Source: an uncultured Candidatus Saccharibacteria bacterium | GTDB lineage: Bacteria > Patescibacteriota > Saccharimonadia > CAILAD01 > GCA-016700035 | Reading direction: 5' to 3' | Length of the DNA: 64,000 bases | Assembly (NCBI GenBank): GCA_964583675.1 | Contig: CAZOVH010000001.1 | Coordinates: 145,754 to 209,753, forward strand | Shown here: piece after piece, positions 7,036-54,870 of the stretch | Layout of the letters: every line of letters starts with the position of its first letter | How positions within the stretch are numbered: the stretch's first letter is position 1 | Made by a program: the position numbers and the translations under genes | Notes under the pieces: model-generated | What the model saw: only the letters and a program-made list of their open reading frames with translations | What the model was told of the DNA's origin: nothing | Database searches by the model: none

Positions 7036-8247
7036 TTAGCTAGCTCTGCCAGTCCAGGTTCCGTCCGCCCATGACCAGCCAGCGTACGGACCGAAAGCTG
7101 CTGTGTTGATTCCGGTGACGTGGACGGTTTTTCCGGAGCTAACAAACTGTCCGCCACCAATCGAAAGCATGACGTGACCGTAGTAGCCGTTTTGCCACGA
7201 TGGTTTGAAGAAGGCGAGAGCGCCAGCTGGCACATTGGTGTCTCCGGCGTGGAACTGCCCGGAGTTGATTTTCTGATACATGTTGGCCTTAGCGCTGAGG
7301 TAGCGTCCGGTAGTTCCGAAAGCGTTTTCAACAAAGCGCTCACACAGATTTCTGTATCCGGTATTCCCGACTATGCTACGTGCCCAGTTGATGGCACGCT
7401 GTTCGCGCAGGCTTGTGCAGCTGGGCGCATCGCCGCTGACAGGATAGACAGCGGTGTAGGCCTGAGTCATTTCAACCGAAACTTGGCGCACGTTGCCCCA
7501 ACCCCCATAGCACTGGTCGAGTTGAGTTGTACTTGTTACGGTGTAACTCCGTCCTCCAAGGATGACATAAGTTGCGGGGCCATATCCTGCTGAATAGTAC
7601 AGGTTGCGTTCTGCGAGTGGGGTGAAAGGCTTGGCGCCCAGATCGGCTCGCCACACGATGGATCCACTCTGGAAATCCTGACGCGTGACACCATTCCAGG
7701 AATACTCATTGCTGCGTGGATAACCGAGCCAGCCATCGGCGCCACCTTGTGAGATGAAGTAGTCACGAATGCCGCCATGTACTCCGTAGGCTTGCCCGAC
7801 AGCGTCGCCTCGCATGACCAGCGTCCAGCCCCAGCTGCCGTAGTTGAAGTCTTGAGTCCAGCCTGCAGCCCAGCGATGTGAGTCGTTGTAGGGATAGCCG
7901 ACCGTCTGGCTGCCCATTCTCACGACGTACTGCCAGTGTTGTCCAACTACAGGGAACACCATCGACTGATTGCAGGTCGGTGACATCAGCGCTGCATCGC
8001 TGAAAGACCCACCACCGTAGTCTTGCAAGCAGCCGTTGTTCCACCAGTGCACACCGTTTTCGGCGCTGCCAATTGCGTTTCCCCCTCCGATGCGGTTGTA
8101 GGCTGCCACCCAAGCTGGGCCTGAGCCACCCTCACCTACGGTGGCAGCTCCTGCAGATGGAGCTGCCAGCACCGCGAAGACCGTGCCTATGAATACTGCA
8201 AGCAGTACCCGTAGGCTCACCCTCCAGGCCTTTGTGTGTGTCGCCAT
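7036..8247 (-). CDS. Secreted cell-wall hydrolase: signal peptide + ~3 LGFP repeats + C-terminal CHAP/NlpC-P60-like Cys/His domain
   Basis: A signal peptide is present (MATHTKAWRVSLRVLLAVFIGTVFAVLAAPSAGAA). LGFP-repeat matches include GGIRDYFISQGGADGWLGYPRSNEYSWNGVTRQDFQSGSIVW. The C-terminal domain has a candidate catalytic Cys (NLCERFVENAFG) and His (GHVMLSIGGG). The gene is visibly GC-richer than its flanks. Confidence 0.65.
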   Translation of the reverse strand: MATHTKAWRVSLRVLLAVFIGTVFAVLAAPSAGAATVGEGGSGPAWVAAYNRIGGGNAIGSAENGVHWWNNGCLQDYGGGSFSDAALMSPTCNQSMVFPVVGQHWQYVVRMGSQTVGYPYNDSHRWAAGWTQDFNYGSWGWTLVMRGDAVGQAYGVHGGIRDYFISQGGADGWLGYPRSNEYSWNGVTRQDFQSGSIVWRADLGAKPFTPLAERNLYYSAGYGPATYVILGGRSYTVTSTTQLDQCYGGWGNVRQVSVEMTQAYTAVYPVSGDAPSCTSLREQRAINWARSIVGNTGYRNLCERFVENAFGTTGRYLSAKANMYQKINSGQFHAGDTNVPAGALAFFKPSWQNGYYGHVMLSIGGGQFVSSGKTVHVTGINTAAFGPYAGWSWADGTWTGRAS

Positions 8248-10514: not shown

Positions 10515-10625
10515 AGCGTGAGAATAGCGCGTTGGCGAGCCACAGCATTGACGTCATATCTGTTGCGTCGTATAATTATGCGGTCGTCTAGCGCCGGTCA
10601 CGTGCCGGTTGTTAGACGGCAACCT

Positions 10626-10700
10626 TCCGGGGTAGCTCAGCGGTAGAGCAGTTGGCTGTTAACCAATTGGCCGCCGGTTCGAATCCGGCCCCCGGAGCCA
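10626..10700 (+). tRNA. tRNA-Asn (anticodon GTT), CCA encoded
   Basis: A manual fold gives an acceptor stem TCCGGGG/CCCCGGA, a D-arm GCTCAGCGGTAGAGC, an anticodon stem GTTGG/CCAAT with loop CTGTTAA, a T-arm GCCGG-TTCGAAT-CCGGC and a terminal GCCA. Confidence 0.85.
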
Positions 10701-12158
10701 ATTTTGAGATTTAGAGCACCTAGCGATTACATCAAAGGGTGCTTTCAGGTTAAAAACGAGCTTTTTGTCCTGAATTACAAGGTTCGAAAGTAGGAAACGT
10801 AAAAGTTTGGATTTTAGTGCCGCTTTCGAACTTTTGAATAGCTGAGGAGCTTTTGTGGCTATCTCTAACAGATACGAACTGGTTAACATAAAACTTTTAT
10901 CATTATGCGTTAGATTAACTAACTGTTCGTCTAGCTGCTCTTGACGAGCCTTTAGGTCCTTAACGTATTCGTCATAGTCATTGAGAGTAATACGCCCATC
11001 TAGCCTGTCCTCGTACAATACACGCAGCTTTTTCTGTATCGTATCGTACTCTGTGCGTGTTTGTTCAATAGCGTTGGCGTAGTATAGCTGCTGATTATCG
11101 TGATGATTACGCAGTTCATCAATAACGTACTTTACAATATCCTCGTTCATTTCTAGCTGACCAATCATTTCAGCAACCTGTGGCACAAGGTCCTTTTCTT
11201 TGATGTGTGATTGCTTGCACGGACCTTTGCCTCTGCTGCACTGCATATAAACGTTACCCTTAGCCGTGTACGAGGATATGCTACAACCGCAGCTGCCACA
11301 TTTCAGCAAGCCATTGAACGTATAGTCAATTTTCTGCTTTTTGGTTCTGTTAGTGCCTCTCTGGTCGTTGACAGCTTGTACTTTATCAAACATCTTTCGG
11401 CTAATTAGCGGTTCGTACTTATGAGGGTACAGCTTGCCACTGTATCTCATAGTGCCGTAATAAAACGGATTTTTAAGTATTTGTTCAACGGTGCTTTGAC
11501 CAATGGGAGTTAACTTTGCCGTGTTATTTCTTAAACCCTCTTTTTTAAGCTGGGCTGCAATGCCCCTGTACGGCGTGCCAATTAAACGCAGTTCAAACGC
11601 CTTTTTAATGTAGGGTGCTCGTTCAGTATCTAATAGTACCGTCGTTTCTTTATCGCTAATTCTGTGATTAACGTAGCCAATCGGTGCTTTACCAGGCCAC
11701 TCGCCGTCATTCAGTTTCTGTTCAAATCTGCGTTTAACATTATCTCTGATACTGTCAGAGTAGTAGCGAGCAAGTGCAACGCCAATACCGAGCCTAAATA
11801 AGTCAGGAGCACCAGAGTTTTTGGTGACGCATAAGTTATCAGATGGGAAGTGTATCTCAATCTGACCGTCCTCACGCAGCTTGTTTAGGGTTTTAACTTC
11901 GTCTGTTGAACTGTCCCTTGTGTAGCGGTCTATTTTGTCAAACACGACAATACAATTTTCTGGGTAATTGCCTATACTATCAACAATCTTGCTAAACGTT
12001 TTGCGATTATCTTTATATGCACTCTCATCAAACTCAAACAGCTCATAATCGTAGTCTTTATCCTTTGCGTACTTTTCAAGCCGTAAAACCTGTGCAGGTA
12101 ATGCTTGTCTCTGTTCTGGGTCTGATACTCTTGCTATTAAAAATGCCTTAGTTTTCAT
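10659..12158 (-). CDS. Large serine recombinase (integrase)
   Basis: The N-terminal resolvase catalytic motif FLIARVSDPEQ is followed by a recombinase domain and a Cys-rich zinc ribbon (CGSCGCS...C...C). The last ~14 codons (RGPDSNRRPIG) are the antisense strand of the tRNA-Asn T-arm. Confidence 0.8.
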   Translation of the reverse strand: MKTKAFLIARVSDPEQRQALPAQVLRLEKYAKDKDYDYELFEFDESAYKDNRKTFSKIVDSIGNYPENCIVVFDKIDRYTRDSSTDEVKTLNKLREDGQIEIHFPSDNLCVTKNSGAPDLFRLGIGVALARYYSDSIRDNVKRRFEQKLNDGEWPGKAPIGYVNHRISDKETTVLLDTERAPYIKKAFELRLIGTPYRGIAAQLKKEGLRNNTAKLTPIGQSTVEQILKNPFYYGTMRYSGKLYPHKYEPLISRKMFDKVQAVNDQRGTNRTKKQKIDYTFNGLLKCGSCGCSISSYTAKGNVYMQCSRGKGPCKQSHIKEKDLVPQVAEMIGQLEMNEDIVKYVIDELRNHHDNQQLYYANAIEQTRTEYDTIQKKLRVLYEDRLDGRITLNDYDEYVKDLKARQEQLDEQLVNLTHNDKSFMLTSSYLLEIATKAPQLFKSSKAALKSKLLRFLLSNLVIQDKKLVFNLKAPFDVIARCSKSQNWLRGPDSNRRPIG

Positions 12159-12209
12159 AGTTATTCCTTTCTCTGTTACTATGTACCATTATATACCAAT
12201 AGATAACAA

Positions 12210-13340
12210 TCATATAGAGCCTTTAATTTGGTCCATCTTTGTTGGCTCAAATTGTTCAAGCATTTGGTTAATGCCTGCTATTGTCTTGTATTGGACCTTT
12301 TGTGTTGGTTTTGTAAGTGGCTTTAGCCGTGTCCAAGCGTGTTTGCCGAAACGGTCCTCAAACAACGCTCTAACGTGACGCTGGTCGCTCGTTGTTAGCA
12401 GCAAAGCCATACCAAGCCGTGCAGCCGCTTGTTGCGGACCTTTCAGCTCATCTGTCTGTAAAATGTTAGCCAGCACCTTATACGGCTCATTACTGTCTAA
12501 CGCCAGTTTGGGCAGGTTAGTGAAAAAATTTTGCCAGTGGTGTTGCAACAACAGTTTTGACAGTTCGGTTGAGAACACGTTTTGAAATACCAGCGGCTTA
12601 TCAAATCCAACTGCTTTGAGTGCGTCAGTTATTTTCCTTTTGCCGTTCAGTCGAACTTCATAACGCATAACTGCTGTGGGCTGTGTCCGAGCTAACTGGT
12701 CTAGCAAATCAAGCTGAACAAAGTTGTCTTTTTCCTGTGACCGTTTTTCGCTAACTTTAGATTGCCTTAGGTCAGCCAGTTTGTCGTATATAGCAATATC
12801 AAGCGAGTTAGTATGAACGTGCAGCACATAACCGCCATTACGGAAGTTCGTGTTCTGTATATCGTAGGTTTTGCTTATGTCAGCTGTTCGTAGCATTTGC
12901 AACACAGCCGAGCAGGACGTATAGTCATCAAACACAAAGTTTTTGCTGTAATGTAACGCCCTTATCTCTGCTTGTTCAATCTGCTTGCTAAACAACCAAA
13001 CGCCCATTTCTCGGAGTGTTTGCTGTAATTTACTAACAACTGACGCAAAGTCGTTATCAATCAGCTCGTCAAAATTATTACCAAATGCAATCTTTGGCAG
13101 GCTCAACTCAATTGCCAACTCGTAACTAGCACGTTTGTAGCCTCTGGGACGCTGCGTATAGGTCAGACGTGGCTGATACTTGCCGAGCTTTTTAGTAGCT
13201 GCTGACGGATTAGCCATTGCTTTAAAATAGCCAAAGTAGTCAGGGTTTATGCTATCCAGCGTCGGTTGAAAGTTGGCTCTTGCGTGCAATGGTCTGTCCA
13301 TTTTTACTACCAGCTTTATTGTGTCTATCATTGTCATCAC
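12210..13340 (-). CDS. Hypothetical protein, possible replication initiator of the element
   Basis: A 376-aa protein with no family recognisable by eye. It sits between the integrase and SpoVG. A YDK...K stretch (IAIYDKLADLRQSK) hints at a rolling-circle Rep-type tyrosine motif, but this is speculative. The start may be the internal MDRPLH. Confidence 0.35.
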   Translation of the reverse strand: MMTMIDTIKLVVKMDRPLHARANFQPTLDSINPDYFGYFKAMANPSAATKKLGKYQPRLTYTQRPRGYKRASYELAIELSLPKIAFGNNFDELIDNDFASVVSKLQQTLREMGVWLFSKQIEQAEIRALHYSKNFVFDDYTSCSAVLQMLRTADISKTYDIQNTNFRNGGYVLHVHTNSLDIAIYDKLADLRQSKVSEKRSQEKDNFVQLDLLDQLARTQPTAVMRYEVRLNGKRKITDALKAVGFDKPLVFQNVFSTELSKLLLQHHWQNFFTNLPKLALDSNEPYKVLANILQTDELKGPQQAAARLGMALLLTTSDQRHVRALFEDRFGKHAWTRLKPLTKPTQKVQYKTIAGINQMLEQFEPTKMDQIKGSI

Positions 13341-13599
13341 GTCCTTTAAAAAGCTGCTGGCACTCGGCTACAACGGCTTGTTCAATCAGGTTGCCAACGT
13401 CCCTGCTAATTGGGTGGTATAGGTTTAACTCTTTACTACCGATTTTCTTGGTTGGGTAAGTAATACGGTATGAGCCGTCTAAACGGCTATGCACGCCAAT
13501 TGAGCCAAGATATAGGCTGTTGTCTATTACTACGCTGGCAAAGGCTAAAAGACCGCTAGTCGGCTTTATCGGTATGATATTTACCTCGCTAATTGTCAT
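13252..13599 (-). CDS. SpoVG-family nucleic-acid-binding protein
   Basis: ISEVNIIPIKPTSGLLAFASVVIDNSLYLGSIGVHSRLDGSYRITYPTKK...YHPISRDV matches the SpoVG core pattern (RA.ASI..D..FV.H.I.V..G..G.FV.MP...DIAHPI). The preferred start is MTISEV at 13599. Confidence 0.7.
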   Translation of the reverse strand: MTISEVNIIPIKPTSGLLAFASVVIDNSLYLGSIGVHSRLDGSYRITYPTKKIGSKELNLYHPISRDVGNLIEQAVVAECQQLFKGRDDNDRHNKAGSKNGQTIARKSQLSTDAG

Positions 13600-13912
13600 T
13601 GCAATTCTCTTGACACTGTTCTGTTTTGCACGGACCTTCAAGCAATAGACTAATTTGTGCTCTTATCGCACGCATTTGCTTGTGGTCCAATTCGCTCAAA
13701 AGAGACTTAATTTTATTTGAGGTTCCATCGCCTGTTATGTCAGCAGGTAAGTAACCCTCTGCGACTTTCACAAGGTGTTCAACCTCGTTAATTTCAGCGT
13801 TCCAAACAATTACTTGGGCGGCATAAAGTCGGCAATCGTTGCACAACGCCATCACAGTATCAGCTACCCTTTGTTTTGTTTCATCGTTCATCATCAATCC
13901 TTTCTTGTTCAT
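13589..13912 (-). CDS. Hypothetical small protein with a CxxC pair
   Basis: 107-aa ORF lying in the same minus-strand gene string as the SpoVG and Rep-like genes of the element. No family assigned. Confidence 0.4.
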   Translation of the reverse strand: MNKKGLMMNDETKQRVADTVMALCNDCRLYAAQVIVWNAEINEVEHLVKVAEGYLPADITGDGTSNKIKSLLSELDHKQMRAIRAQISLLLEGPCKTEQCQENCNDN

Positions 13913-14048
13913 TTAGTTCAAGGTCCATTTCTATCAGCACGTCAAAATAGCCAACGAGGTTGGCTGTTGCTACGTCATCTCGACCAAGCTCGGCAAGAAA
14001 CTCTTGCAAGCTGACGATGTTTGGCTGTTGGCTATTTTGCTGCTGCAT
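13905..14048 (-). CDS. Possible small acidic protein (47 aa)
   Basis: Manual translation of the minus strand gives MQQQNSQQPNIVSLQEFLAELGRDDVATANLVGYFDVLIEMDLELNEQERIDDER. It fills the gap between two island genes and is below the track's size cutoff. Confidence 0.25.
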
Positions 14049-14106
14049 ATAGCCATTACGACAAAACAGGCGTTTAGCCGAGTTTAAACCTGTGGATAAT
14101 TACAAT

Positions 14107-15357
14107 TTACAGATTAGTGCGATACTTAGGGTTTATGTATACCTCATAGTTCAAAAGTATAAAAAACTCAGTAATTTGACCTTTTGTGGCAGCTGCAATC
14201 TTGATGTTTAGAGCCTTAACGTAGCCTTTGATGATGTTATTGAAACTGTCCTCATTGCCATCAGTACCAGCGTGCATTGTAAATACCAGTTCCATAAGAT
14301 GGGTAACGTCCCATTTTTTCGTAAAGTTATCTATTGAACTAAAGAAAAAATCACAAAATCTGGCTTGTTTTGAGCTGCGTTGCACATCTACTTTGTAGCC
14401 TTTAAGTATGAGTTGTGAGCTTTCAATCTGAAACTTAATATCAGCGTAAGCAATTTTTGTAATGCCACTTTCCAACTTACCCATTACATACTGTTTTACT
14501 TCTGCAATCTGATTACTATTTGCTTTCAATTCTGTAAATAAAAGGTCGAGTTTGGCGGTGCTTACAAGCTGATAGTCATCGTCTATACGCTTAGTACGGC
14601 TTGTGTCACTAACAATCGTTACATTACCGTCTCGGTCAATTACCTCAATGTCATCAAGGTTAATCGTTTCAACAGGCGTAAACTTTGCAAATGTCGTACT
14701 TATAGAGGCTAGGTCAACTGCAAATGCCTTAACAATCATTTCGCTCATTGAATTTATGCTTTCAAACAGACTGCGTGTAAGGTTGGCGGCGTGAGCGGTT
14801 GCCATAAATGACTGCCCAATTATCCCATAAGTGATAGCCAGTTTTTGCTGCATAGCAGCAATTTGCTGAACAGGGACAATCAGGTTTGTCTGGAACTTTT
14901 GAGTTGCTAAGGCAAATCGCTGAGCGTCCTGTGCAATACGAGCCATTGGCAGGGTTTCTAGTGAGTTGAATATCTTGGCAATGCCTGAAAAGTCGTACTG
15001 AGCCGATATACGCTTGGCTATTTCAGCAGCCATTACATTTGCTTGTTCGAGCTGCTTTGCTTGTCTTGGTGTTAATAAATTGGGGTCTTTTTTCAGTAAC
15101 TCTTGCCACTCATCAACAGACAAGCCAGAACGATATTTTTTAGCGTCTAAGTTTAGGTCGTATTTATTTTGGTTGGTTATACGCCTATCACGAATAACGT
15201 GTGCTGGCGTAACCTCTGTCGGTGCTTGTTTAACAGGTAGAGTTATCTCTACTGGTTTAATGTTGTCGGTCTTTGGCTTTTTGACAGGCTGCTTAGCCGC
15301 TTTTGATTGCGGCTTTTTCTTGGGTTGTTTAGGCTGCTTGTCATCTTTTTTCATCAC
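14107..15357 (-). CDS. Hypothetical cargo protein with a lysine-rich N-terminus
   Basis: A 416-aa protein beginning MMKKDDKQPKQPKKKPQSKAAKQPVKKPK, with no recognisable domain. It is transcribed divergently from the excisionase gene. Confidence 0.5.
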   Translation of the reverse strand: MMKKDDKQPKQPKKKPQSKAAKQPVKKPKTDNIKPVEITLPVKQAPTEVTPAHVIRDRRITNQNKYDLNLDAKKYRSGLSVDEWQELLKKDPNLLTPRQAKQLEQANVMAAEIAKRISAQYDFSGIAKIFNSLETLPMARIAQDAQRFALATQKFQTNLIVPVQQIAAMQQKLAITYGIIGQSFMATAHAANLTRSLFESINSMSEMIVKAFAVDLASISTTFAKFTPVETINLDDIEVIDRDGNVTIVSDTSRTKRIDDDYQLVSTAKLDLLFTELKANSNQIAEVKQYVMGKLESGITKIAYADIKFQIESSQLILKGYKVDVQRSSKQARFCDFFFSSIDNFTKKWDVTHLMELVFTMHAGTDGNEDSFNNIIKGYVKALNIKIAAATKGQITEFFILLNYEVYINPKYRTNL

Positions 15358-15427
15358 GTTTTTCCAAAACTGCTCTATCGCAGGTGTTCACATTCTTGTA
15401 TCATAATAGTATCAATTGTGAGGTTTT

Positions 15428-15616
15428 ATGTCATCAAAAGATTTACCAGAATTACTAACACTGAAACAAGCGAGCGAACTGCTGCAAGTACACCCAAACA
15501 CATTACGCAACTGGGATAACAACGGCACTCTTAAAGCTGTCCGTATTGGTGGGCGTAGTTTACGACGTTATAAAAAAAGCGATTTATTAAAATTTGTAGA
15601 ACAACCAAAAAAGTAA
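15428..15616 (+). CDS. Excisionase-family HTH DNA-binding protein (Xis/AlpA-like)
   Basis: LLTLKQASELLQVHPNTLRNWDNNGTLKAVRIGGRSLRRYKKSDLLKFV matches the classic excisionase HTH pattern (LLT.KEAAELLGVS..T..RW...G.LPA.RIG.R..R...DL..FL). Confidence 0.7.
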   Translation: MSSKDLPELLTLKQASELLQVHPNTLRNWDNNGTLKAVRIGGRSLRRYKKSDLLKFVEQPKK

Positions 15617-15631
15617 TGAAAGGGGTTAATT

Positions 15632-16261
15632 GTGTCCTTATTTGATAAATTAAAAGACGCTAGTGATAAAGCAGGTAAGTCAGCCGCTGGTGCATACGAA
15701 AAGCATAAAGAAAAAGTAGCTGCGACTAAAGAGGCTCGTGGCAATACGCTCAAAGCAGTATCACTAGATTATATGGGCGGATACAGCGACTACAAAAAAG
15801 CAAAGGGCATACTAACGTTTTACGAGAAACAAACTGAGTTTAGTAGTCCATTATCAACAAAGTTCACAATCATCAATGACCAAGTATCTAACATTGTTAT
15901 TGAGGGCAAAGATGATGTTAGCAGACGTGTAACAGTAACTCGGCTATTAGCGGTTGGTATTTTTGCATTTGCCTTAAAAAAGAAAAAGAAAGAAAAAGAG
16001 GCATACCTGACGGTAGAGTTGTCAGACGGTCAAGAGGTTATATTTTTTGTTGATAACAATTCGCCTATGGAATTAAAGACTAAACTAGCAAAAGTTGTAT
16101 CTTTGGTTAAACAGGCTGGCGTATCTAGTAGTAACGCCCAAGCAGTACAAAACCAGCAAGTTAGCGTAGCAGATGAGCTGGCAAAACTGGCAAAACTCAA
16201 AGAACAGGGCGTAATTACCCAAGATGAGTTTGATAAGAAAAAGACTGAGTTGCTGGGCTAA
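15632..16261 (+). CDS. SHOCT-domain protein
   Basis: The C-terminal SHOCT motif ELAKLAKLKEQGVITQDEFDKKKTELLG is present. The N-terminal ~130 aa form an unassigned beta-rich domain. Confidence 0.6.
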   Translation: MSLFDKLKDASDKAGKSAAGAYEKHKEKVAATKEARGNTLKAVSLDYMGGYSDYKKAKGILTFYEKQTEFSSPLSTKFTIINDQVSNIVIEGKDDVSRRVTVTRLLAVGIFAFALKKKKKEKEAYLTVELSDGQEVIFFVDNNSPMELKTKLAKVVSLVKQAGVSSSNAQAVQNQQVSVADELAKLAKLKEQGVITQDEFDKKKTELLG

Positions 16262-16281
16262 AAACGCTTGGTCATTTTGCA

Positions 16282-16297
16282 GCCGAAAAAATTCGGC
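16282..16297 (+). terminator. Candidate hairpin terminator after the SHOCT gene
   Basis: GCCGAA-aaaa-TTCGGC hairpin followed by ATTTCAT. A second hairpin, GGGG-taata-CCCC, lies at ~16334-16350 beside the convergent Ltp gene. Confidence 0.4.
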
Positions 16298-16345
16298 ATT
16301 TCATAGGTGGTATCCCAAGTCTAGTAACTAAGGGGTAATACCCCC

Positions 16346-16852
16346 CTAGTCGTTGAGGTGTGCTATGGCGTAATCAGCCTCAGCTGCGGTAAATTGACCG
16401 CCTTGTGCTGATACCAGTTGGTCACGAACACCAGCTGGTGACAGGTGCAAATCATTTTGATATGTCTTTGCCTGAGCAAGAGCGTTTGCGTTCCAATCTG
16501 CTTTTACGTTATCTACGGCGTATTGTGCTGCCTCTGGCTTAAACTTACCGCCATATTCAGAGACCAGTTGGTCATATAAACCTTTTTTTGACAGGTGTAA
16601 ACTGTTTGCATAAGTATCAGCCTGTGCGAGAGCAGATTTGTACTCAGCTGGTACGGCAGGTTCTTTCTTTTCTGCTGGCTTAGCCTCAGCTGCTTGCTTG
16701 GTTTCACTACTCGCTGGCGTGCTGTTATTTGAGGTATTTGTGTCAGTACCGCCACTTGCTGCACTTACAATAACAATCAGTAAGATAAAACCGAGTATTC
16801 CTGATAAAACCTTGTGTCTCTTAAACCAATTACCTTGTTTTTTATCTGCCAT
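16346..16852 (-). CDS. Ltp-family (phage superinfection-exclusion 'host cell surface-exposed lipoprotein') tandem-repeat protein, membrane-anchored
   Basis: An N-terminal transmembrane segment is followed by an S/T/A/E-rich linker. Two Ltp repeats follow: KSALAQADTYANSLHLSKKGLYDQLVSEYGGKFKPEAAQYAVDNV and ANALAQAKTYQNDLHLSPAGVRDQLVSAQGGQFTAAEADYAIAHL. Confidence 0.7.
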   Translation of the reverse strand: MADKKQGNWFKRHKVLSGILGFILLIVIVSAASGGTDTNTSNNSTPASSETKQAAEAKPAEKKEPAVPAEYKSALAQADTYANSLHLSKKGLYDQLVSEYGGKFKPEAAQYAVDNVKADWNANALAQAKTYQNDLHLSPAGVRDQLVSAQGGQFTAAEADYAIAHLND

Positions 16853-16953
16853 TACAAACTATCCTTTCATTTGATTATAGTTATCGTCAGTATATACCAT
16901 TTGCTTACATTTGTCAGTGGTTACTTACAATTGTAAGCAATACGCTAAAAGAT

Positions 16954-17181
16954 GTGAAAACATCATCTGTCGAACACATCTATACCGAACTAGGCAAGCG
17001 TATTGTTAAGGCACGTAATGATAAGGGTATGAGCCAAGAAAAACTAGCTGCTACTAGCGGAATTGACCGTTCACATATGGGGTTTATAGAGCAAGGTCGT
17101 AGAAAGCCAACACTATCTACACTGTTTAAAATTGCTAAGTCGCTTGATATGTCGCTGGAACAACTGTTTAAAGGTTTATAG
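16954..17181 (+). CDS. XRE-family HTH transcriptional regulator (cI/Cro-like)
   Basis: The HTH_3 pattern is visible: GMSQEKLAATSGIDRSHMGFIEQGRRKPTLSTLFKIAKSLDMSLEQLF. Confidence 0.7.
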   Translation: MKTSSVEHIYTELGKRIVKARNDKGMSQEKLAATSGIDRSHMGFIEQGRRKPTLSTLFKIAKSLDMSLEQLFKGL

Positions 17182-17491
17182 TCCGCCAAACGACAATGCA
17201 AGGTCAGGCTCATATTGTCTGACGGTTGCTGCTAAATCTTCAAATTCGTAATCCTCAAAGTTATTGCTGGCAGTTCGTAGAGTTTCCACTAGACGGAGCC
17301 AAAGAAAATGCTCGAGCCTTGCGTTCGGGCTTTTTCTTTGGAACTGAGTGCTTGCGAAGTCGAACCGTAGGTTCGTCGTAGCGAAGCGAAGAAGACGTAG
17401 TCGCTATCCGGCATGGGAACATAATATGTGATAGAGAATTCCATATAACTTTTATGTCACTAGACTCACTGATTTATGCAATAATCAAAGC

Positions 17492-17920
17492 ATGAAAGAA
17501 ATGCAGTTCAAGATTGAAATTAGTGCTCCAAAAGAAAGAGTTTGGCAAATCCTGTGGGAGGACGAATCGTTACGCGACTGGTCTGGCATCGTTGATCCAG
17601 GAACATACATGTTGGGCGAACTTAAAGAGGGTGAAACTGTGCAGTTCAATTCTGCAGAAGGCTACGGTGTAACGAGTTTAGTAGCAGAACTAATTCCAAA
17701 TGAATTTATCTTATTCAAGCATCAGGCTGACACGCAAGATAGTGGTAAAGCTCATCGCGATGACCAATGGATGGGTGGCCAAGAGAGCTACAAGCTTACC
17801 GAAAAAAATGGAGTCACAACCTTAGAGATGAGCCTTGATGTGCCGCCAGAACTGGAAAAAATAATGAGTGCTAGCTATCCAAAGGCTTTGGCACGAATTA
17901 AAGAATTATCTGAAAGCTAA
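17492..17920 (+). CDS. SRPBCC (AHSA1/polyketide-cyclase-like) domain protein
   Basis: 142-aa protein whose N-terminus (FKIEISAPKERVWQILWEDESLRDW) matches the SRPBCC pattern. Confidence 0.55.
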   Translation: MKEMQFKIEISAPKERVWQILWEDESLRDWSGIVDPGTYMLGELKEGETVQFNSAEGYGVTSLVAELIPNEFILFKHQADTQDSGKAHRDDQWMGGQESYKLTEKNGVTTLEMSLDVPPELEKIMSASYPKALARIKELSES

Positions 17921-24991: not shown

Positions 24992-26527
24992 ATGAATCAG
25001 TCACTCGCGTTAGAAATTATGCTTGCTGGTGAGAGCGCGTTGCTCACCGGTGCTGCCGGCTCTGGTAAAACGTATGTGCTCAACAAGTTTATCCGCCTCG
25101 CTCAGCGCGAAGGAAAAAATGTAGCCGTCACGGCAACAACTGGCTTAGCGGCTACACATCTTGGCGGTACAACTATTCATTCTTGGAGCGGTATGGGTAT
25201 TCATAATGTTTTGCCGCCTCGCTTCGTGGATTCGCTCGCGCAATCTCGGAAAGACACCATTGCTGCAGCCGATATTTTGGTGATTGATGAAATTTCGATG
25301 ATGCACGATTATCGACTGGATATTGTTGACGAAATTACGCGCAAGGTTCGCGGCAAAGATGAACCGTTTGGCGGTTTGCAGGTAATTTTATGCGGAGATT
25401 TCTTCCAATTACCCCCTATTAATCGTGACGGCGAACGGGCCGGTGGATTTGTGGTGAACGCGCAAGTTTGGCAGGAACTGAGCCCTGTGGTGTGTTATTT
25501 AGATGAGCAACATCGGCAAGAAGATGATGCATTTTTGGATATTTTAAATGCTATGCGCGCTGGAGATGTGCGCCGACGTCATGTAGAACAGCTTTTGGAA
25601 CAGAAAGATGCCGAGCTAGGCTATGGGCAAGAAGTGACAGAGCTTCATACTACCAACGTTGATGTTGATAGTCTGAACGCTCGCAAGCTCGCCGAACTAA
25701 AAAGTGAGCCGCATCGATATGAAATGCAAACTTCTGGCAAGGCGAATTATCTTGATACTCTCAAACGGTCCTGTTTAGCGGTTGAGGATTTGGTTTTGAA
25801 AGAAGGCGCACTTGTGATGTGTATTCGTAATAGTCCGGATAAGAAATATGTTAATGGAACGCTTGGTGTGGTTATGGGGTTTGAGGATGAAACCGGCTAC
25901 CCGATTGTTGAGTTGCGTGATGGCCGTAAGATTGTGCTTGAACCGGCCACGTGGGAGTTGCGTGATGGTGATAAAAAGCGAGCCTCCATTGTGCAAATTC
26001 CTCTGCGCCTGGCCTGGGCAATAACGGTGCACAAAAGCCAGGGTATGACGCTTGATGCTGCTCGAGTGGATCTCAGACGAGCTTTTGTTGAGGGGATGGG
26101 TTACGTTGCACTATCTCGAGTGCGCAGTTTAGGTACACTCAGTCTTACCGGGATGAACTCGATGGCGATTAAAGTGAGTCCTGAAGCTGTGGCGATTGAT
26201 GGTAAACTGAGATCTCGCTCGGCGGCCGATGCAGAGCGTTTCGTACATCTTCGATCTGCAGCTGCCAAGCGCGCGGTTGAGCCGGAGGTCTTGGACGAGG
26301 TAAAAAAGCCGACTTCTGCCTGGGGTGAGCGACTTGCGGCTATTCGTGCTGAGCATCCTAAAGCCTTCACTCCTTGGAAATCCAGTGACGATGTTGAATT
26401 AAAGCAAATGTATGAAGACGGCAAGGGTGTTGATGTAATCAGCAAAAAACTTGGTCGTCAGCCCGGAGGTGTGCGGGCGCGCATTAAGAAATTCTACGGA
26501 GATGATGCGCTTCTGGCGCGTAAGTGA
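24992..26527 (+). CDS. Pif1/RecD-like superfamily 1 DNA helicase with a C-terminal HTH-like extension
   Basis: Walker A (LTGAAGSGKTY) and Walker B (VIDEISMM) motifs are present, with Pif1-type motifs and a C-terminal ~100-aa basic tail (RQPGGVRARIKKFYG). Confidence 0.7.
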   Translation: MNQSLALEIMLAGESALLTGAAGSGKTYVLNKFIRLAQREGKNVAVTATTGLAATHLGGTTIHSWSGMGIHNVLPPRFVDSLAQSRKDTIAAADILVIDEISMMHDYRLDIVDEITRKVRGKDEPFGGLQVILCGDFFQLPPINRDGERAGGFVVNAQVWQELSPVVCYLDEQHRQEDDAFLDILNAMRAGDVRRRHVEQLLEQKDAELGYGQEVTELHTTNVDVDSLNARKLAELKSEPHRYEMQTSGKANYLDTLKRSCLAVEDLVLKEGALVMCIRNSPDKKYVNGTLGVVMGFEDETGYPIVELRDGRKIVLEPATWELRDGDKKRASIVQIPLRLAWAITVHKSQGMTLDAARVDLRRAFVEGMGYVALSRVRSLGTLSLTGMNSMAIKVSPEAVAIDGKLRSRSAADAERFVHLRSAAAKRAVEPEVLDEVKKPTSAWGERLAAIRAEHPKAFTPWKSSDDVELKQMYEDGKGVDVISKKLGRQPGGVRARIKKFYGDDALLARK

Positions 26528-44124: not shown

Positions 44125-45087
<963 letters not shown>

Positions 45088-45103
45088 TATAATTATCTAC
45101 TAG

Positions 45104-45928
45104 ATGGAACACGTTGTAGTCATTCGTCCTAAGAAACGACTCGCAATCGACTGGAAGGAGCTCAAGGAATACCGCGAGCTCTTCTTCTACTTCGCTTGGC
45201 GTGATGTAAAGGTGCGCTACAAGCAAACCGCAATTGGTATTTTGTGGGCAATTTTGCAGCCATTTATTCAGATGGTGGTATTTACGCTGTTCTTCAATAA
45301 AGCTGTGGGTATAGAGACGGGCTCAGCCGTTCCTTATGCAATTTTTTCTTATACTGGCTTATTATTCTGGAACTATTTCTCGCAGGCTTTGCAGCGTTCG
45401 GCAAATAGCCTTGTAGATAATCAGGCTGTTGTAACAAAGGTGTATTTTCCGCGCATTATTCCACCAATTTCCTCCACGATTGTCTCGTTTATAGATTTTT
45501 TGTTTGCGTCGATTATTTTTATAGGCCTCATGATTTATTTTCAGTTTGTACCAACTCTCTTGGGTGTACTTCTAGTAATTCCAGCTATAATAGTGACCTT
45601 CCTAGCTGCTACTGGACCGGGCCTCTTCCTAGCTGCAGTTAACGTGAAATACCGTGACGTGAAGCAGGCATTGCCGTTTCTTATTCAACTAGGCCTGTTC
45701 CTTACGCCAGTTATCTATCCGGTTACAGCCATCCCCGAGCAGTACCAGTGGCTACTGTATTTAAACCCAATGACAGGCGTGATTAATGCAATGCGTGCAA
45801 GCCTACTTGGAGCTGGAGAAATTAACTGGGCCCTTACGGCGCTTTCGGTTGCGATGGCAGTTATTATGTTTATTGGTGGATTGTATTACTTCAAGGGTAG
45901 AGAAAAGGAATTTGCGGATATTATATGA
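45104..45928 (+). CDS. wzm: ABC-2 polysaccharide export permease (Wzm/TagG-like)
   Basis: A 6-TM ABC-2 permease lying upstream of, and coupled to, the Wzt-like ATPase gene. Confidence 0.75.
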   Translation: MEHVVVIRPKKRLAIDWKELKEYRELFFYFAWRDVKVRYKQTAIGILWAILQPFIQMVVFTLFFNKAVGIETGSAVPYAIFSYTGLLFWNYFSQALQRSANSLVDNQAVVTKVYFPRIIPPISSTIVSFIDFLFASIIFIGLMIYFQFVPTLLGVLLVIPAIIVTFLAATGPGLFLAAVNVKYRDVKQALPFLIQLGLFLTPVIYPVTAIPEQYQWLLYLNPMTGVINAMRASLLGAGEINWALTALSVAMAVIMFIGGLYYFKGREKEFADII

Positions 45929-47208
45929 GCAAGCCAGCTATAGAAATTAAGGACCTATCTAAGGCATATATGATTGGTCATGAGCGAGAAGCCATGGCTG
46001 GCACGATGACGTTTCGGGATTCGCTGGTAAATATTGCCCGTAAGCCTTATGAGCTTTTTACTGGCCATCAACTAAAAAAAGAAAAATTCTGGGCGCTAAA
46101 GGATGTCAATCTAGAAATACAACAGGGTGATGTAGTTGGCATTATTGGTCGCAACGGATCGGGGAAATCAACTCTTCTCAAAGTTTTGTCTCGCATAGTG
46201 GAACCAACCAAAGGTGAAGTGATAATGCGCGGCCGCGTCGCGAGCTTGCTTGAGGTAGGAACAGGTTTTCATCCTGAGCTTACTGGACGTGAGAATGTAT
46301 ATTTTAACGGTGCCATTCTTGGAATGACCCGTAAGGAGATACAGTCTAAATTTGATGAGATTGTAGCATTTTCAGAAGTTGAGAAATTTTTGGATACGCC
46401 TGTAAAATTTTATTCTTCTGGCATGTATGTGCGACTTGCGTTTGCAGTTGCGGCTCATCTTGATCCGGATATTCTCATCGTTGATGAAGTGCTAGCTGTA
46501 GGGGATGCGGCTTTCCAAAAGAAATGTTTGGGGAAGATGAAAGATGTGGCTGGGCAAGGGCGAACCGTATTATTTGTTAGCCATAGCATGGATTCAGTAC
46601 GGAAGTTGTGTACAAAGGGGCTTTATATCAAGGCAGGAGAACAGCAAGGTACGATCGAGGATATAGATAAGGCTATAGGGAAATATACAAACGATATATC
46701 TACAGAGCTGAGTACCGAATGGGTTAAAAATGATGAGAATTTTTTCTCGAATGATTGGTATGATATTAATAGTATGAGAATTACTGACTCTAAGTTTAGT
46801 ACTATTAAGAAAATACCTACAAAAGATAGTGAAGCATGGATTGAGATAGAGGGTACCTTCAATAAAATTAGTCCAGAATTGAAGCTGGGTTACACCCTTT
46901 ATTCTGATGAAGGGACAATTCTCTATACTTCTGTGCAGACTGATATTGAAGAGAAAAAATGGCCAAAACTTAAGACTGGTACTTTTAAGCTTCGTTCAAG
47001 ATTACCTTTTTCAATGCTGAAGACAGGAAAGTATATTTTAGAGATGAATTCAAGTATTCATAATAAAAAAATGCTCAGTGGCTTAGGGCTTGAAGCCCCT
47101 AGTATTAGCTTTGAGATTATTGGAGATGCCAGTAAATCCCCCCACTATGTATTGTCTCGCGAGGGGGTGATTGCACCTATAATAACGTGGGAGTATAAAA
47201 ATGATTAA
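45925..47208 (+). CDS. wzt: Polysaccharide export ABC ATPase (Wzt/TagH-like) with a C-terminal ~180-aa extension
   Basis: Walker A GRNGSGKST and the signature YSSGMYVRLAFAVA are present. The beta-rich C-terminal domain is analogous to the glycan-binding module of O-antigen Wzt. Confidence 0.8.
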   Translation: MSKPAIEIKDLSKAYMIGHEREAMAGTMTFRDSLVNIARKPYELFTGHQLKKEKFWALKDVNLEIQQGDVVGIIGRNGSGKSTLLKVLSRIVEPTKGEVIMRGRVASLLEVGTGFHPELTGRENVYFNGAILGMTRKEIQSKFDEIVAFSEVEKFLDTPVKFYSSGMYVRLAFAVAAHLDPDILIVDEVLAVGDAAFQKKCLGKMKDVAGQGRTVLFVSHSMDSVRKLCTKGLYIKAGEQQGTIEDIDKAIGKYTNDISTELSTEWVKNDENFFSNDWYDINSMRITDSKFSTIKKIPTKDSEAWIEIEGTFNKISPELKLGYTLYSDEGTILYTSVQTDIEEKKWPKLKTGTFKLRSRLPFSMLKTGKYILEMNSSIHNKKMLSGLGLEAPSISFEIIGDASKSPHYVLSREGVIAPIITWEYKND

Positions 47209-47893
47209 TCGCCATTATATAAGAAGAAAAGCTAGTGCATTGCGTCATCATACCGAAAAGCATGAAGAAGGAATAATCCCGAAAAGCCTGATAGCTAGGT
47301 ATCTGCCCCCAAATCCTGTAATACTGGAGGCGGGAGCACATGTGGGGACCGATACTTTGCAAATGTGCAGTATGTGGCCAGATGCGAGAATACATGCCTT
47401 TGAGCCTGTGTCAGACATATTCGCGCAGCTAGAAAAAAATACCAAGCATTTATCGATGGTCAACCGTTATAAGCTAGGGCTGGGCAATAAGACTGAACAG
47501 AGAAAAATATATGTTAGTAGCGGCGCCTCAGATGCGTCCAGTTCTCTGCTAAAGCCAAAAAAACATCTAGAGATAAACCCTAAGGTTAAGTTTCAGTCGA
47601 TGGAGAACATTCAAGTAACAACGATTGCCGATTGGGCACGTAAGGAGGGGATTAATAAGGTTGACTTCATGTGGCTCGACCTACAGGGCATGGAGCTGCC
47701 GGTTCTGCAAAATACTGGTTCAATTTTACAGGGCGTGAAGATGATTCTCGCAGAAGTAAGTCTGATTGAGACTTATGAAGGTGTTTCAATGGCAGATGAC
47801 CTTACGAGATTCCTCGAACAGGAGGGTTTTAGGGTCTTGGTTGAGGAGATGCCTTACCCGGATATGGGTGACATTTTATATGTACGGAAATAG
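47201..47893 (+). CDS. FkbM-family SAM-dependent methyltransferase
   Basis: ILEAGAHVGTDTL...FEPVSDIFAQLEKN...YKLGLGNKTEQRKIY is the FkbM pattern. Confidence 0.7.
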   Translation: MINRHYIRRKASALRHHTEKHEEGIIPKSLIARYLPPNPVILEAGAHVGTDTLQMCSMWPDARIHAFEPVSDIFAQLEKNTKHLSMVNRYKLGLGNKTEQRKIYVSSGASDASSSLLKPKKHLEINPKVKFQSMENIQVTTIADWARKEGINKVDFMWLDLQGMELPVLQNTGSILQGVKMILAEVSLIETYEGVSMADDLTRFLEQEGFRVLVEEMPYPDMGDILYVRK

Positions 47894-47896
47894 TAC

Positions 47897-48739
47897 ATGT
47901 TGACTGTTGAATTTCATGACAAGCTTTTCGAAGGCTATAGTAGTGCAGCTCGAGGAGATTTGAAATGCAAACCCAAGCATATTTTTTTTGATCGAACAGC
48001 TAATCATAGCATTGCCTTATTTACTGATGAGAGTCTTGATGAGGTTAACTCATCAAAAGCGGTAATAAATTTAGCATGGCTAGTAGAGTCTCCTGATTTT
48101 AAAAAGAATATTTATAAAAAAATGAGGAAGAAAAAGGTCTACTCGAAGTTTGATCGGATATATACGTTCGACTCTGCGCTACTCGCAAAAGATCCAAGAT
48201 TTGTGATGCTGCCTGTTGGTGGCAGTTGGATTGATGACAAAAACTGGCGAATATACAATAAATACCTCAACCTATCAATGATTGCATCACGAAAAAAACA
48301 GTTGAAAGGGCATAGGTTGCGCCATGAAATTATTGGAAAATTTGCCGATTACCTCGATGAGGTATATGGTAGTGGGTATTTAGCATTTGATAATAAGATA
48401 GATGTCATGAAGCCCTTTAGATATAGTATTGTTATCGAAAACGGCAGGCGTGATTACTATTTTACGGAGAAATTGATCGATTGTTTTGCGGTGGGCACTA
48501 TACCTATTTATTGGGGCTGCCCCAGTATTGGGAAATTTTTCAATCCGGAGGGAATACTCCCTTTTAGGACTTTGCGTGACCTAAAAAAAATCTTAGCTAA
48601 TATTTCAGAGGAAGACTATTTTTCCAGGATGGCAGCTGTTAAAGATAATCTAGCTCGTGCAAAGGATTATGTGATGCCAGAGGATAATATGTATGAACTT
48701 ATGAAGAGAGATCAGCTGTTCTCAACCGAGTTAACATAG
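47897..48739 (+). CDS. GT10-like alpha-1,3/4-fucosyltransferase
   Basis: [46 protein letters not shown] matches the GT10 C-terminal motif (FENS...YVTEK..DA....IPIYWG.P.....FNP). Confidence 0.6.
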
Positions 48740-48750
48740 GGGGGTATATT

Positions 48751-49308
48751 TTGAAGCAATTAATAAATCTAATGCTTAGCAAGTTTGGCTACAATATAAA
48801 GCGTATACCTCAGGTTTCTGACAGGGATCTCCTAAACGGCACTTACCCAGGGGTTACATTTATAGGTCCATTAGATAATTACAATATTGGTGAAAAAGTT
48901 ACTATTGGCTTAGGGAGTATACTTTTTGCTTGTGAAAATATAACAATTGGTGACAATTCGATGATTGCAGTAGGTGTAATCATTCACACGAGTACGCATG
49001 ATTATGCAGCACATCCAATGTGGAAGTATCGTATTGATCGCCCTGTATATATTGGTGATTATTCATGGATTGGAGCGGGGGCAATAATACTGCCAGGGGT
49101 TAGAATTGGTAGAAATGCTGTAGTTGGGGCTGGCTCAGTTGTTACTGCGAATGTTCCAGAAGGAGCTATAGTTGCGGGAAATCCAGCGAGGATAATTAAG
49201 CATCGAAATAAGGCGGACTACCTCAAAAAGCCTGATATTATTGAGTTTGAGGAAGCAATTACAATAAAAGAGCCTTTCGGTGTTAACAAGATAAAAAGAA
49301 GGAGGTAA
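48751..49308 (+). CDS. Left-handed beta-helix (hexapeptide) O-acetyltransferase, WcaF/Mac-like
   Basis: Hexapeptide repeats are present ([15 protein letters not shown]...[31 protein letters not shown]). The gene has an apparent TTG start. Confidence 0.7.
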
Positions 49309-49312
49309 AGAG

Positions 49313-49966
49313 TTGAATATTTATAGGAAAATACGTGGAAAGATTCTGAAGCCAATCAGAACTGATATTCAATCCGAGAGGGTGAAGCCCTGGTTTGAGA
49401 TAGGTGGCGATAGGACCCTGCGGCTTAACTATGACTTGAATGAAAAATCTATAGTTTTCGATCTTGGTGGCTATGAGGGACAATGGGCTAGCGATATTTA
49501 TTCCAAGTATCGGCCAAAGATATATGTCTTTGAACCAATGCCTGAGTATGCAAAGAATATCAAAGAGCGATTTAAGAAGAATCCTGACATAAAAACGTTT
49601 ATATTTGGGTTGTCTAATGAGGATAAGAAGATAAGTCTTACAGTCGATGGTGATGCTAGTTCGGGTATCAAAGAATCGGACAATGCCATAGAGGCAGAAC
49701 TTAAGAAGGCAGCTACTTTTATAGATAATCTTGGAGTGAATAAGATTGATCTAATGAAAATAAATATTGAAGGTGGAGAATATGATCTACTAGATCACCT
49801 GATAGAAACAGGGTGGATTAAGAATATTGATAATATTCAGGTGCAGTTTCATGATTTTTTCGATGAAGCAGAGGGGAGAATGAAGAAAATTCAGGCCCAG
49901 CTGAAGAAAACTCATAAAATTACCTATCAATATCCATTTGTTTGGGAAAATTGGAAACTTAAGTAG
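49313..49966 (+). CDS. FkbM-family methyltransferase (second copy)
   Basis: FDLGGYEGQWASD...VFEPMPEYAKNIKERF, with an apparent TTG start. Confidence 0.7.
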   Translation: MNIYRKIRGKILKPIRTDIQSERVKPWFEIGGDRTLRLNYDLNEKSIVFDLGGYEGQWASDIYSKYRPKIYVFEPMPEYAKNIKERFKKNPDIKTFIFGLSNEDKKISLTVDGDASSGIKESDNAIEAELKKAATFIDNLGVNKIDLMKINIEGGEYDLLDHLIETGWIKNIDNIQVQFHDFFDEAEGRMKKIQAQLKKTHKITYQYPFVWENWKLK

Positions 49967-49971
49967 TTGAT

Positions 49972-52635: not shown

Positions 52636-52686
52636 TGTGCTTGTACTTAGTTGCTTGTTAATAGGGTTTATTACAGGAGTATATTG

Positions 52687-53862: not shown

Positions 53863-53864
53863 AC

Positions 53865-54824: not shown

Positions 54825-54870
54825 GAATCCTCCTTGGTTATCTGAACATTAGGTATAATACACAGTATAT

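Follow-up and report, generated by a model that had tools for sequence, protein, structure and literature searches.

A large part of the diversity of uncultured bacteria belongs to Saccharibacteria and other Patescibacteria, and to our knowledge almost nothing is known about their plasmids and integrative elements, nor do we know of genetic tools for them other than natural transformation with homologous recombination. The described systems which come closest in layout to the element reported here are the integrative and conjugative elements of actinomycetes (AICEs), which are 9-17 kb in size; cultured Saccharibacteria live on Actinobacteria. AICEs use a tRNA gene as target, carry an int-xis-rep module, replicate by rolling-circle replication and encode an FtsK-type Tra protein (PMC2440964). 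Here we describe a 6,601-bp element inserted at a tRNA-Asn gene in a 64,000-nt stretch of DNA (hereafter the window) from an uncultured Saccharibacteria bacterium (assembly GCA_964583675.1, contig CAZOVH010000001.1, positions 145,754 to 209,753, forward strand), which we compared with its relatives in other genomes and metagenomes. From this comparison, it is probable that we are dealing with a plasmid-like element of Saccharibacteria which can integrate and replicate itself, i.e. a rolling-circle episome resembling AICEs and the integrative and mobilisable elements (IMEs).

The window element combines integration at a tRNA 3' end with int, xis and a predicted rolling-circle rep gene, and thus shares with AICEs the site of insertion, the int-xis-rep module, the (predicted) rolling-circle replication of the excised circle and the presence of variable accessory genes. 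It differs from them in that AICEs usually have a tyrosine integrase and a Rep protein of the RepSA or RepAM type, whereas here a large serine integrase and a predicted G2P/Cri-type Rep are found, in that the window copy and nearly all of its relatives lack an FtsK-like Tra protein and spd genes, and in that SpoVG is a core gene and attP is located inside int. One relative (L096) does encode a membrane-anchored FtsK/SpoIIIE translocase, which resembles TraB of AICEs. The Firmicutes IMEs with serine integrases and Rep_trans-type (MOBT) relaxases (PMC5704250) are also small and integrative and have no mating apparatus, both they and the window element contain an integrase, a (here predicted) rolling-circle-type initiator and cargo, and both may rely on a type IV secretion system (T4SS) encoded elsewhere, but the window element has no recognisable MOB relaxase or coupling protein.

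The ends of the element were derived by aligning the window with the attP junction of a circular relative. The element is flanked by two copies of the 9-bp core CGGAGCCAA (plus strand), with the attL core at 10693-10701, where it consists of the last 8 nt of the tRNA including the CCA and one further nucleotide, and the attR core at 17294-17302. This 9-mer is common to attL, attR, the attP of the circular relatives and the empty attB sites, with no longer repeat shared between the four, as expected for a large serine integrase. Searching the stretch from 10 to 22 kb for direct repeats that would reveal a duplicated tRNA 3' end gave nothing useful, with no long repeat flanking the region, and a dyad-symmetry scan for the crossover (central) dinucleotide assigned no position. 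A preliminary description of the window had proposed a compact integrative mobile element at tRNA-Asn with integrase, excision, replication and regulation genes and Ltp-type cargo, and this is what we find, with all of its gene calls confirmed by the open reading frame (ORF) list, Pfam and PHROGs; its extent was however given as 10626-17450, which has to be replaced by the 6,601 bp delimited by the 9-bp cores. The target tRNA-Asn(GTT) gene (10626-10700, plus strand; ARAGORN, and Rfam RF00005 with 73.5 bits) is intact after insertion, and is preceded by the promoter-like sequence TTGACG-17-TATAAT (10548-10576). The predicted attB consists of the tRNA 3' end, followed by the core and then by AGAAAATGCTCGAGCC. 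The native terminator of the tRNA-Asn gene (17310-17340, plus strand), a hairpin with T-run which is part of the host DNA, comes immediately after the tRNA in the empty sites (L013-L016 and L018) and is 6.6 kb away in the window. Insertion thus parts the tRNA-Asn gene with its promoter (10548-10700) from its terminator (17310-17340), and as a consequence the strong tRNA promoter should read antisense into the integrated int gene, which could provide a built-in control of int. The composition of the element is atypical compared to its flanks, with a GC-content of 41.4% versus 44-47%, and a tetranucleotide distance to the rest of the window of 0.375, versus a maximum of 0.311 for 89 other 6.6-kb windows.

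Unoccupied versions of the site were found via contigs encoding exactly the flanking 142-aa protein (17492-17920). The attB site is empty in five contigs from independent assemblies of the same species (L013-L016 and L018), four of which match the predicted attB at every one of the 140 nt compared, with L014 differing at a few flank positions; the exact attB pattern gave no matches in JGI metagenome contigs. The same attB is filled by sister elements with other cargo in three further contigs (L010, L011 and L012), and the window element itself is also integrated in several metagenome contigs. With regard to circular forms, the Logan contig L006, with a Rep 94% identical to that of the window, has a 30-nt terminal overlap and closes into an 8,655-bp circle, and on contig L007 a 527-aa Int gene is directly followed by the XRE gene, which represents the attP junction. 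Four contigs of 8,762-8,763 nt from four samples (L091-L094), with terminal overlaps of 29-30 nt, are rotations of a single 8,733-bp circle, and a further rotation without terminal overlap was found in a fifth sample (L095). Similarly, L096 is a circular relative of 8,669 bp, and two contigs from other assemblers are also circular, L132 with a 123-nt and L134 with a 55-nt overlap, bringing the number of independent circular relatives to five, L006 included, from several lineages. In distant loci a longest-shared-k-mer search for attR was too noisy, with 8-9-mers matching by chance, and attR was accepted there only together with a conserved tail or a circular contig. Neither a lack of empty-site variants nor a host-like composition was found, and the empty sites, circular forms and atypical composition therefore argue for a mobile element. 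A decayed, immobile prophage or island remnant fixed in this lineage would also be small and without structural genes, and could be found as the same element integrated in several metagenome contigs, but we strongly disfavour this explanation and regard it as scarcely credible: the same attB is empty or differently occupied within the same species, near relatives are circular, the core ORFs are all intact and identical across samples, and the detached tail of int, described below, has the signature of purifying selection.

The int gene (10659-12158, minus strand) is present in its integrated allele and encodes a large serine recombinase of 499 aa, in which Resolvase, Recombinase and Zn_ribbon_recom domains are recognised (phrog_95, E=1e-72). 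The catalytic domain (PF00239, E=3e-13) has an RVS motif with Ser12, which together with R78, R81 and D82 is invariant in 44 homologues, as are the four cysteines of the zinc ribbon; PF07508 and PF13408 are also present. Thus the catalytic domain, the Recombinase domain and the zinc ribbon with embedded coiled coil are all in place, and the integrase is intact rather than truncated. The gene had been described as abutting the tRNA; it does adjoin it, but more intimately than this, as the last 14 codons of int overlap the tRNA in antisense orientation (42 nt), with the int stop codon located inside the anticodon loop. In the integrated allele the last 11 residues (RGPDSNRRPIG) and the stop are therefore encoded antisense to the tRNA, and the tryptophan codon TGG, which is the antisense of the CCA of the tRNA, specifies a Trp residue invariant in the same 44 homologues. 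At the other end of the element, a detached 3' segment of int (17176-17293, minus strand) encodes the last 38 of the 39 residues of the free-form tail (RLVETLRTASNNFEDYEFEDLAATVRQYEPDLALSFGGL) and the stop codon, which overlaps the stop codon of the XRE gene; the first residue of this tail (R) straddles the core, and the tail is in frame with int only in the circle. Joining attL and attR extends Int from 499 to 527 aa, in agreement with the 527-aa Int encoded on the junction contig L007, so that the integrated protein ends in ...NWL-RGPDSNRRPIG and the free form in ...NWL-RLVETLRTASNNFEDYEFEDLAATVRQYEPDLALSFGGL. The attP site is thus located inside the int ORF, and integration moves the tail to the far end of the element.

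This arrangement is also apparent in the related integrases, since 90 of the best 120 Int clusters end in tRNA-antisense residues (...DSNQRP...) and thus represent integrated alleles. Free-form tails with a shared motif were found in P0174, P0177, P0222, P0234, P0236 and P0255, with the acidic and aromatic consensus ..TLRT..[DN][YF][ED].[YH].., and in the tRNA-Gly lineage the integrated Int stops right after ..WCG. The detached tail segment, which is intergenic when integrated, is open over exactly 41 codons in 10 distinct DNA versions, with variable columns distributed over the three codon positions as 16/11/32 (chi-square p=0.002) and stop codons in every other frame. From both the codon-position bias and the open frame in 10 versions we conclude that the tail is a selected coding sequence, expressed only from the circle, and that it is under purifying selection. 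Two other recurrent tails (..NWL[RP]IQVT[DE].. and ..NWLTTIEEVIT..) correspond neither to tRNA-antisense residues nor to the main free-form motif; proteins and loci with other or free-form tails are P0170, P0221, P0231, P0266 and P0281, P0227, P0272 and P0284, and L148, L170 and L172. Some of the ..NWLTTIEEVIT.. tails and the free-form tail of the Gly lineage (L148) sit inside long contigs, and the recurrent other tails may mark other target sites or other types of free-form tail.

Changes to a C-terminus upon integration are known from tyrosine integrase systems. In the mycobacteriophages BPs and Brujita, which have integration-dependent immunity, it is the repressor gene that is remodelled, while in the SSV1-type fuselloviruses the int gene is split into two inactive parts. 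These systems and the window element have in common that attP is located in a coding gene and that integration alters the C-terminus, giving 'viral' and 'prophage' alleles; they differ in that here the integrase is a serine one which retains all of its folded domains, the sole exchange being that of a tail of about 39 residues. The compact prophage-like element phiRv1 of Mycobacterium tuberculosis targets a repetitive element, and has no rolling-circle Rep and no attP within int; it resembles the window element in combining a large serine integrase with a small helix-turn-helix (HTH) excisionase-like directionality factor. An AlphaFold2 model of a 527-aa Int homologue (mean pLDDT, the predicted local distance difference test, of 79) contains the catalytic and recombinase domains, the zinc ribbon, the coiled coil (339-417), of which the helices are long and antiparallel, and a small alpha/beta unit, with the fold complete by approximately residue 481, and with the tail modelled at low confidence as a flexible segment with two short helices. 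According to this model the 499-aa enzyme would keep every folded domain, and would lose only a flexible, conserved appendage. It is conceivable, albeit doubtful, that this remodelling acts as a built-in sensor of the state of the element, in which the tail would either bias the enzyme toward attP x attB recombination or set its stability in a degron-like manner, and in which the enzyme, once it has lost the tail, would be primed for Xis-dependent excision; if true, this would be a directionality or commitment switch new to serine integrases. A literature search gave no description of the element family or of a serine integrase straddling its own attP, which does not prove that there is none, as large-scale surveys of serine recombinases may list these proteins.

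To determine how widespread the family is, one genome per GTDB species was searched with a Rep profile, giving 72 loci, nearly all in Saccharibacteria metagenome-assembled genomes (MAGs), which were then searched with the window proteins using tblastn. Scanning metagenomes gave another 79 loci with the same core genes, and thus 151 family loci from the two scans. The family is thus widespread, being present in at least 72 Saccharibacteria species representatives. Of the 72 genome loci, 71 have Int, 68 have SpoVG and 65 have Xis, and the gene order Xis (divergent) ... SpoVG-Rep-Int is invariable; homologues of Ltp, SHOCT and XRE are found in few. In 54/72 loci the reading frame of int extends into a convergently oriented tRNA gene, the targets being tRNA-Gly-GCC (32), tRNA-Asn-GTT (17), tRNA-Asp (3), tRNA-Trp (1) and tRNA-Ser (1), and 10 further loci end at a contig edge. 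In the remaining eight ARAGORN saw no tRNA, and in three of these (L021, L022 and L025) the 3' half of a tRNA comes after the core; in L021, the only one tested, the target tRNA is interrupted by a group I intron (12690-12949; RF00028, 69.8 bits), and integration at the 3' end thus coexists with a tRNA intron. Group I introns in tRNA-Asn and tRNA-Asp have recently been reported in Patescibacteria (PMC13011429). An int gene straddling attP across five tRNA targets amounts to a natural experiment on how the integration state feeds back on a recombinase. Three MAGs contain two family members each (L025 and L047 in JAYRRP01, L027 and L050 in JAKOQC01, and L034 and L059 in CAYGDI01), which in 2/3 cases are at different tRNAs (Asn or Asp, and Gly), and this double occupancy suggests compatible lineages with distinct att specificities. 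An extra core with 10-11 nt of tRNA 3' sequence is found just outside attR in two loci (L023:2539-2560 and L022:3569-3590); such copies may have been left behind by earlier insertions or by tandem arrays at the site.

The replication gene (12210-13340, minus strand) is a 376-aa ORF with a probable ATG startcodon at 13331. We found 290 homologues of this Rep, and the named ones are from Saccharibacteria or other genomes of the candidate phyla radiation. When 37 diverse homologues were searched against Pfam, 16-17 matched PF05144 (G2P N-terminal, 'Phage_CRI') with 26-32 bits against a cutoff of 21.7; the matching proteins are 40-49% identical to the window Rep, with profile positions 1-225 of 232 covered, and the HxH, YDK and RxExR motifs are invariant in the family alignment. 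Through these homologues, the 376-aa protein is predicted to be a rolling-circle initiator of the G2P/Cri (PF05144) family, with a remote relationship to the phage initiators. Among solved structures, the Rep profile matched only a ribosomal protein, by chance. Directly upstream of rep in 68/72 genome loci and 76/79 metagenome loci is a gene for a SpoVG-like nucleic-acid-binding protein (PF04026, 31.5 bits), which in the window overlaps the rep start (13252-13599, minus strand). It is preceded by genes for two small proteins on the same strand, one of 107 aa (13589-13912; 100 aa according to gene callers) which has no Pfam, PHROG or PADLOC match, and an acidic one of 55 aa (13881-14048) which is called as a gene in Logan contigs; both are from the ORF list and are found in 19/72 loci, in the case of the 107-aa ORF in close relatives only. 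The first gene of this leftward operon (14107-15357, minus strand) encodes p416, a lysine-rich, predicted DNA-binding protein of 416 aa with a homologue in 33/72 genome loci, which has a disordered Lys-rich N-terminus, a helical middle part and a C-terminal OmpR/PhoB-type winged helix; the latter is the sole confident fold in its AlphaFold2 model, in which residues 1-300 have low confidence.

The gene content was also compared with that of viruses and their satellites. In agreement with the preliminary description, which noted no capsid, terminase or tail gene, none of the genes matched a capsid, terminase, portal or tail family in Pfam or PHROGs. The match to phage-inducible chromosomal islands (PICIs) and other hitchhiker satellites which it drew is not supported for this copy, as no packaging, capsid-redirection or PICI-type primase-helicase gene was found, and Rep is predicted to be of the G2P/Cri type. 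PICIs do have int at one end, divergent repressor/xis regulation and accessory or defence cargo in common with the window element, but the latter has no primase-helicase replicon, no homologues of terS, ppi, cpm or capsid genes (Pfam, PHROGs, PADLOC), and with 6.6 kb is half the usual PICI size; no link to a helper was found for it. A satellite of a filamentous phage, dependent on a helper for coat and export like RS1 and TLC-phi, would be more plausible than a PICI-like one. RS1 and TLC-phi of Vibrio cholerae integrate at dif using the XerCD recombinases of the host, and have a known helper filamentous phage. Like the window element they are small and chromosomally integrated, and combine a Rep of the Cri/gpII family (predicted in the case of the window element) with a repressor and no morphogenesis genes; they differ in that the window element has its own serine integrase and a tRNA target, and that no helper is known for it. 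The predicted membership of Rep in the Pfam family of the filamentous-phage initiators (PF05144), the small size and absence of morphogenesis genes, a repressor and Xis arranged as in temperate elements, and an Ltp exclusion gene typical of prophages would all fit such a satellite. However, neither single-sequence nor profile scans found the Rep family among 2.9 million IMG/VR viral contigs, and tblastn with Rep found no match in phage (50,697 records) and plasmid collections. We found neither a packaging signal nor terS, a capsid-remodelling gene or a small coat-like membrane protein, and no ORF of the window element matched a pI/Zot-like ATPase or small membrane-spanning coat proteins in Pfam or PHROGs. 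A Zot/pI ATPase was seen in none of the annotated elements, the flanks of the 151 related loci not having been screened for one, and one relative has a conjugation-type FtsK translocase instead. On balance a phage satellite of either type is unlikely.

A minimal temperate virus, with its structural proteins hidden among the unassigned ORFs, for instance p416 as a DNA-binding capsid protein, is more improbable still, and we give it very little credence. The rolling-circle Rep, a genome of 6-10 kb and the basic N-terminal arm of p416 do recall single-stranded DNA viruses, and three ORFs have no assignable function. Against this, p416 shows no jelly-roll or HK97 fold, the part outside the winged helix being predicted as helical or disordered, the protein is missing or unrecognisable in over half of the family, and the element lacks small coat-like proteins that span the membrane as well as PHROG structural matches. 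A single-sequence scan of viral contigs with p416 found nothing, and the evidence for an OmpR-type winged-helix fold led us to reject it as a capsid protein. The absence of virion, packaging and defence genes, the lack of viral relatives of the Rep family and the predicted G2P/Cri type of Rep together favour a self-replicating integrative plasmid.

The replication/integration operon is separated from the divergent xis gene by a control region (15358-15427) which is 85-98% conserved in close relatives, and whose minus strand has a promoter-like site (15434 to 15406). The xis-like gene (15428-15616, plus strand) encodes an HTH_17/MerR-type protein (PF12728, E=6e-14; excisionases phrog_66 and phrog_2907), found at the same divergent position in 65/72 loci, which is a candidate recombination directionality factor (RDF). 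Next to it is a cargo gene for a SHOCT-domain protein with one predicted membrane helix (15632-16261, plus strand; PF09851, E=9e-9; phrog_888), which is swapped for other genes in sister elements. The second cargo gene (16346-16852, minus strand) encodes an Ltp protein (PF07553, E=2e-41, 140 bits; phrog_4980 'superinfection exclusion', E=1e-53), with two PF07553 repeats in tandem and an N-terminal hydrophobic helix, as expected of a membrane-exposed repeat protein. No lipobox cysteine was found in its N-terminal 40 residues, so it is not a classical lipoprotein, and its sequence suggests that it is probably anchored by a transmembrane helix. The gap between the Ltp and XRE genes contains a near-perfect 18-nt palindrome (16901-16940; inverted repeat I11, 89% complementary, 4-nt spacer), with promoter-like sites on both strands and 90-100% conservation in relatives, which is a probable repressor operator overlapping divergent promoters. 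The XRE-family repressor gene follows (16954-17181, plus strand; PF01381, E=1e-13, and many PHROG repressor families).

The preliminary description also referred to a candidate defence island, and to a chassis for anti-phage cargo. The first label does not apply to this copy, as PADLOC finds no defence system among the genes of the window, giving generic HTH matches only for the window copy. The second is reasonable at the level of the family, since sister elements carry defence-like cargo: a ThsB-TIR protein with membrane partner, a PD-T7-5-like protein, a mad2-like methyltransferase, and a helicase/methylase pair resembling type III restriction-modification. Further cargo in the family includes a beta-lactamase-fold protein, an MFS transporter, DUF4352, and SDR, GDSL and NUDIX enzymes. 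The membrane-anchored FtsK/SpoIIIE protein mentioned above (516 aa; PF01580 and FtsK_gamma) is encoded next to xis in L096 (4545-6095, minus strand) and L097 (3563-5113, minus strand), and tblastn found no other copy in the 151 family loci or the further loci compared.

For an integrative rolling-circle episome, the following life cycle can be proposed. The serine integrase would recombine attP with attB, and the HTH_17 Xis-like protein may act as the directionality factor for excision by attL x attR recombination, after which the G2P/Cri-family Rep would nick an origin and drive rolling-circle replication. SpoVG, whose gene invariably overlaps the start of rep, and the OmpR-like p416 may be DNA-binding accessory or regulatory factors, and the XRE repressor would keep the element quiescent via its 18-nt palindromic operator. 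The variable slot between xis and XRE would hold cargo of benefit to the host, in this copy the SHOCT protein and the Ltp-type exclusion protein, the latter possibly excluding phages.

Several observations weigh against this interpretation. The window Rep itself has no Pfam match, with phrog_702 ('replication protein') matched weakly (E=0.006), and the comparison of the Rep profile with M13 gpII, the Rep of phage B5 (Orf9) and the Cf1c Rep was not significant, with a short RFE.R motif alone aligned, which makes any relationship to the phage initiators a remote one. No origin or nick site was found in the conserved intergenic regions, where the hairpins are conserved and not diagnostic. The circles were seen for relatives with Rep identities of up to 94% and not for this exact copy, and what circular contigs prove is that the DNA is circular or in tandem, not that it replicates autonomously. 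The RDFs of serine integrases form a heterogeneous group, and the role given to Xis is therefore an assumption. The 107-aa and 55-aa proteins and the N-terminal 300 residues of p416 could hide a function which changes the picture, and finally the window copy encodes no transfer mechanism. No T4SS genes were found among the ten window ORFs scanned for them with Pfam.

Candidate routes of transfer are natural transformation, mobilisation via a chromosomal T4SS, and the FtsK-type translocase of one relative. Saccharibacteria are naturally competent, and have a chromosomal T4SS homologous to conjugation machinery with relaxases generally missing (PMC12857230, PMC12102498), for which reason the T4SS of Patescibacteria are thought to be non-conjugative (PMC12102498). 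Given this combination of competence and a relaxase-poor T4SS, both transformation and mobilisation by an unrecognised Rep-type relaxase are conceivable, and the 'very different relaxase' which the T4SS of Patescibacteria is said to lack (PMC12102498) might be the G2P-like Rep. The AICE-like layout and the FtsK-bearing relative also raise the question of gene flow between the epibionts and their actinobacterial hosts. With attP, attB, attL and attR now defined at base level, together with a putative native replicon and a variable slot for cargo (defence, transport and enzyme genes), the family is a candidate native shuttle replicon and site-specific integration system for Patescibacteria genetics.

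Finally, three regions outside the element were noted in the window. The gene at 7036-8247 (minus strand) encodes a secreted protein of 403 aa in which LGFP repeats are weakly matched (PF08310), and lies in a 1-kb stretch with a GC-content of 56.5% versus approximately 45% for the window. LGFP repeats are typical of actinobacterial cell-wall proteins, and the gene may have been acquired from an actinobacterial host. About 8 kb to the right of the element, a PIF1-like helicase (24992-26527, plus strand; PF05970, E=1e-34) is found amid small accessory genes (AHSA1, DUF1697, PhnB-like, HxlR and flavodoxin-like); the portion of this accessory stretch covered by the empty-site contigs is present there, and hence is located outside the element. 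The region 46000-58000 has a GC-content of 37-42% and a strongly positive GC skew, and just upstream of this low-GC stretch the ORFs scanned (44128-47208) are an epimerase and ABC-2 transporter genes, which are probably part of a cell-envelope polysaccharide cluster.

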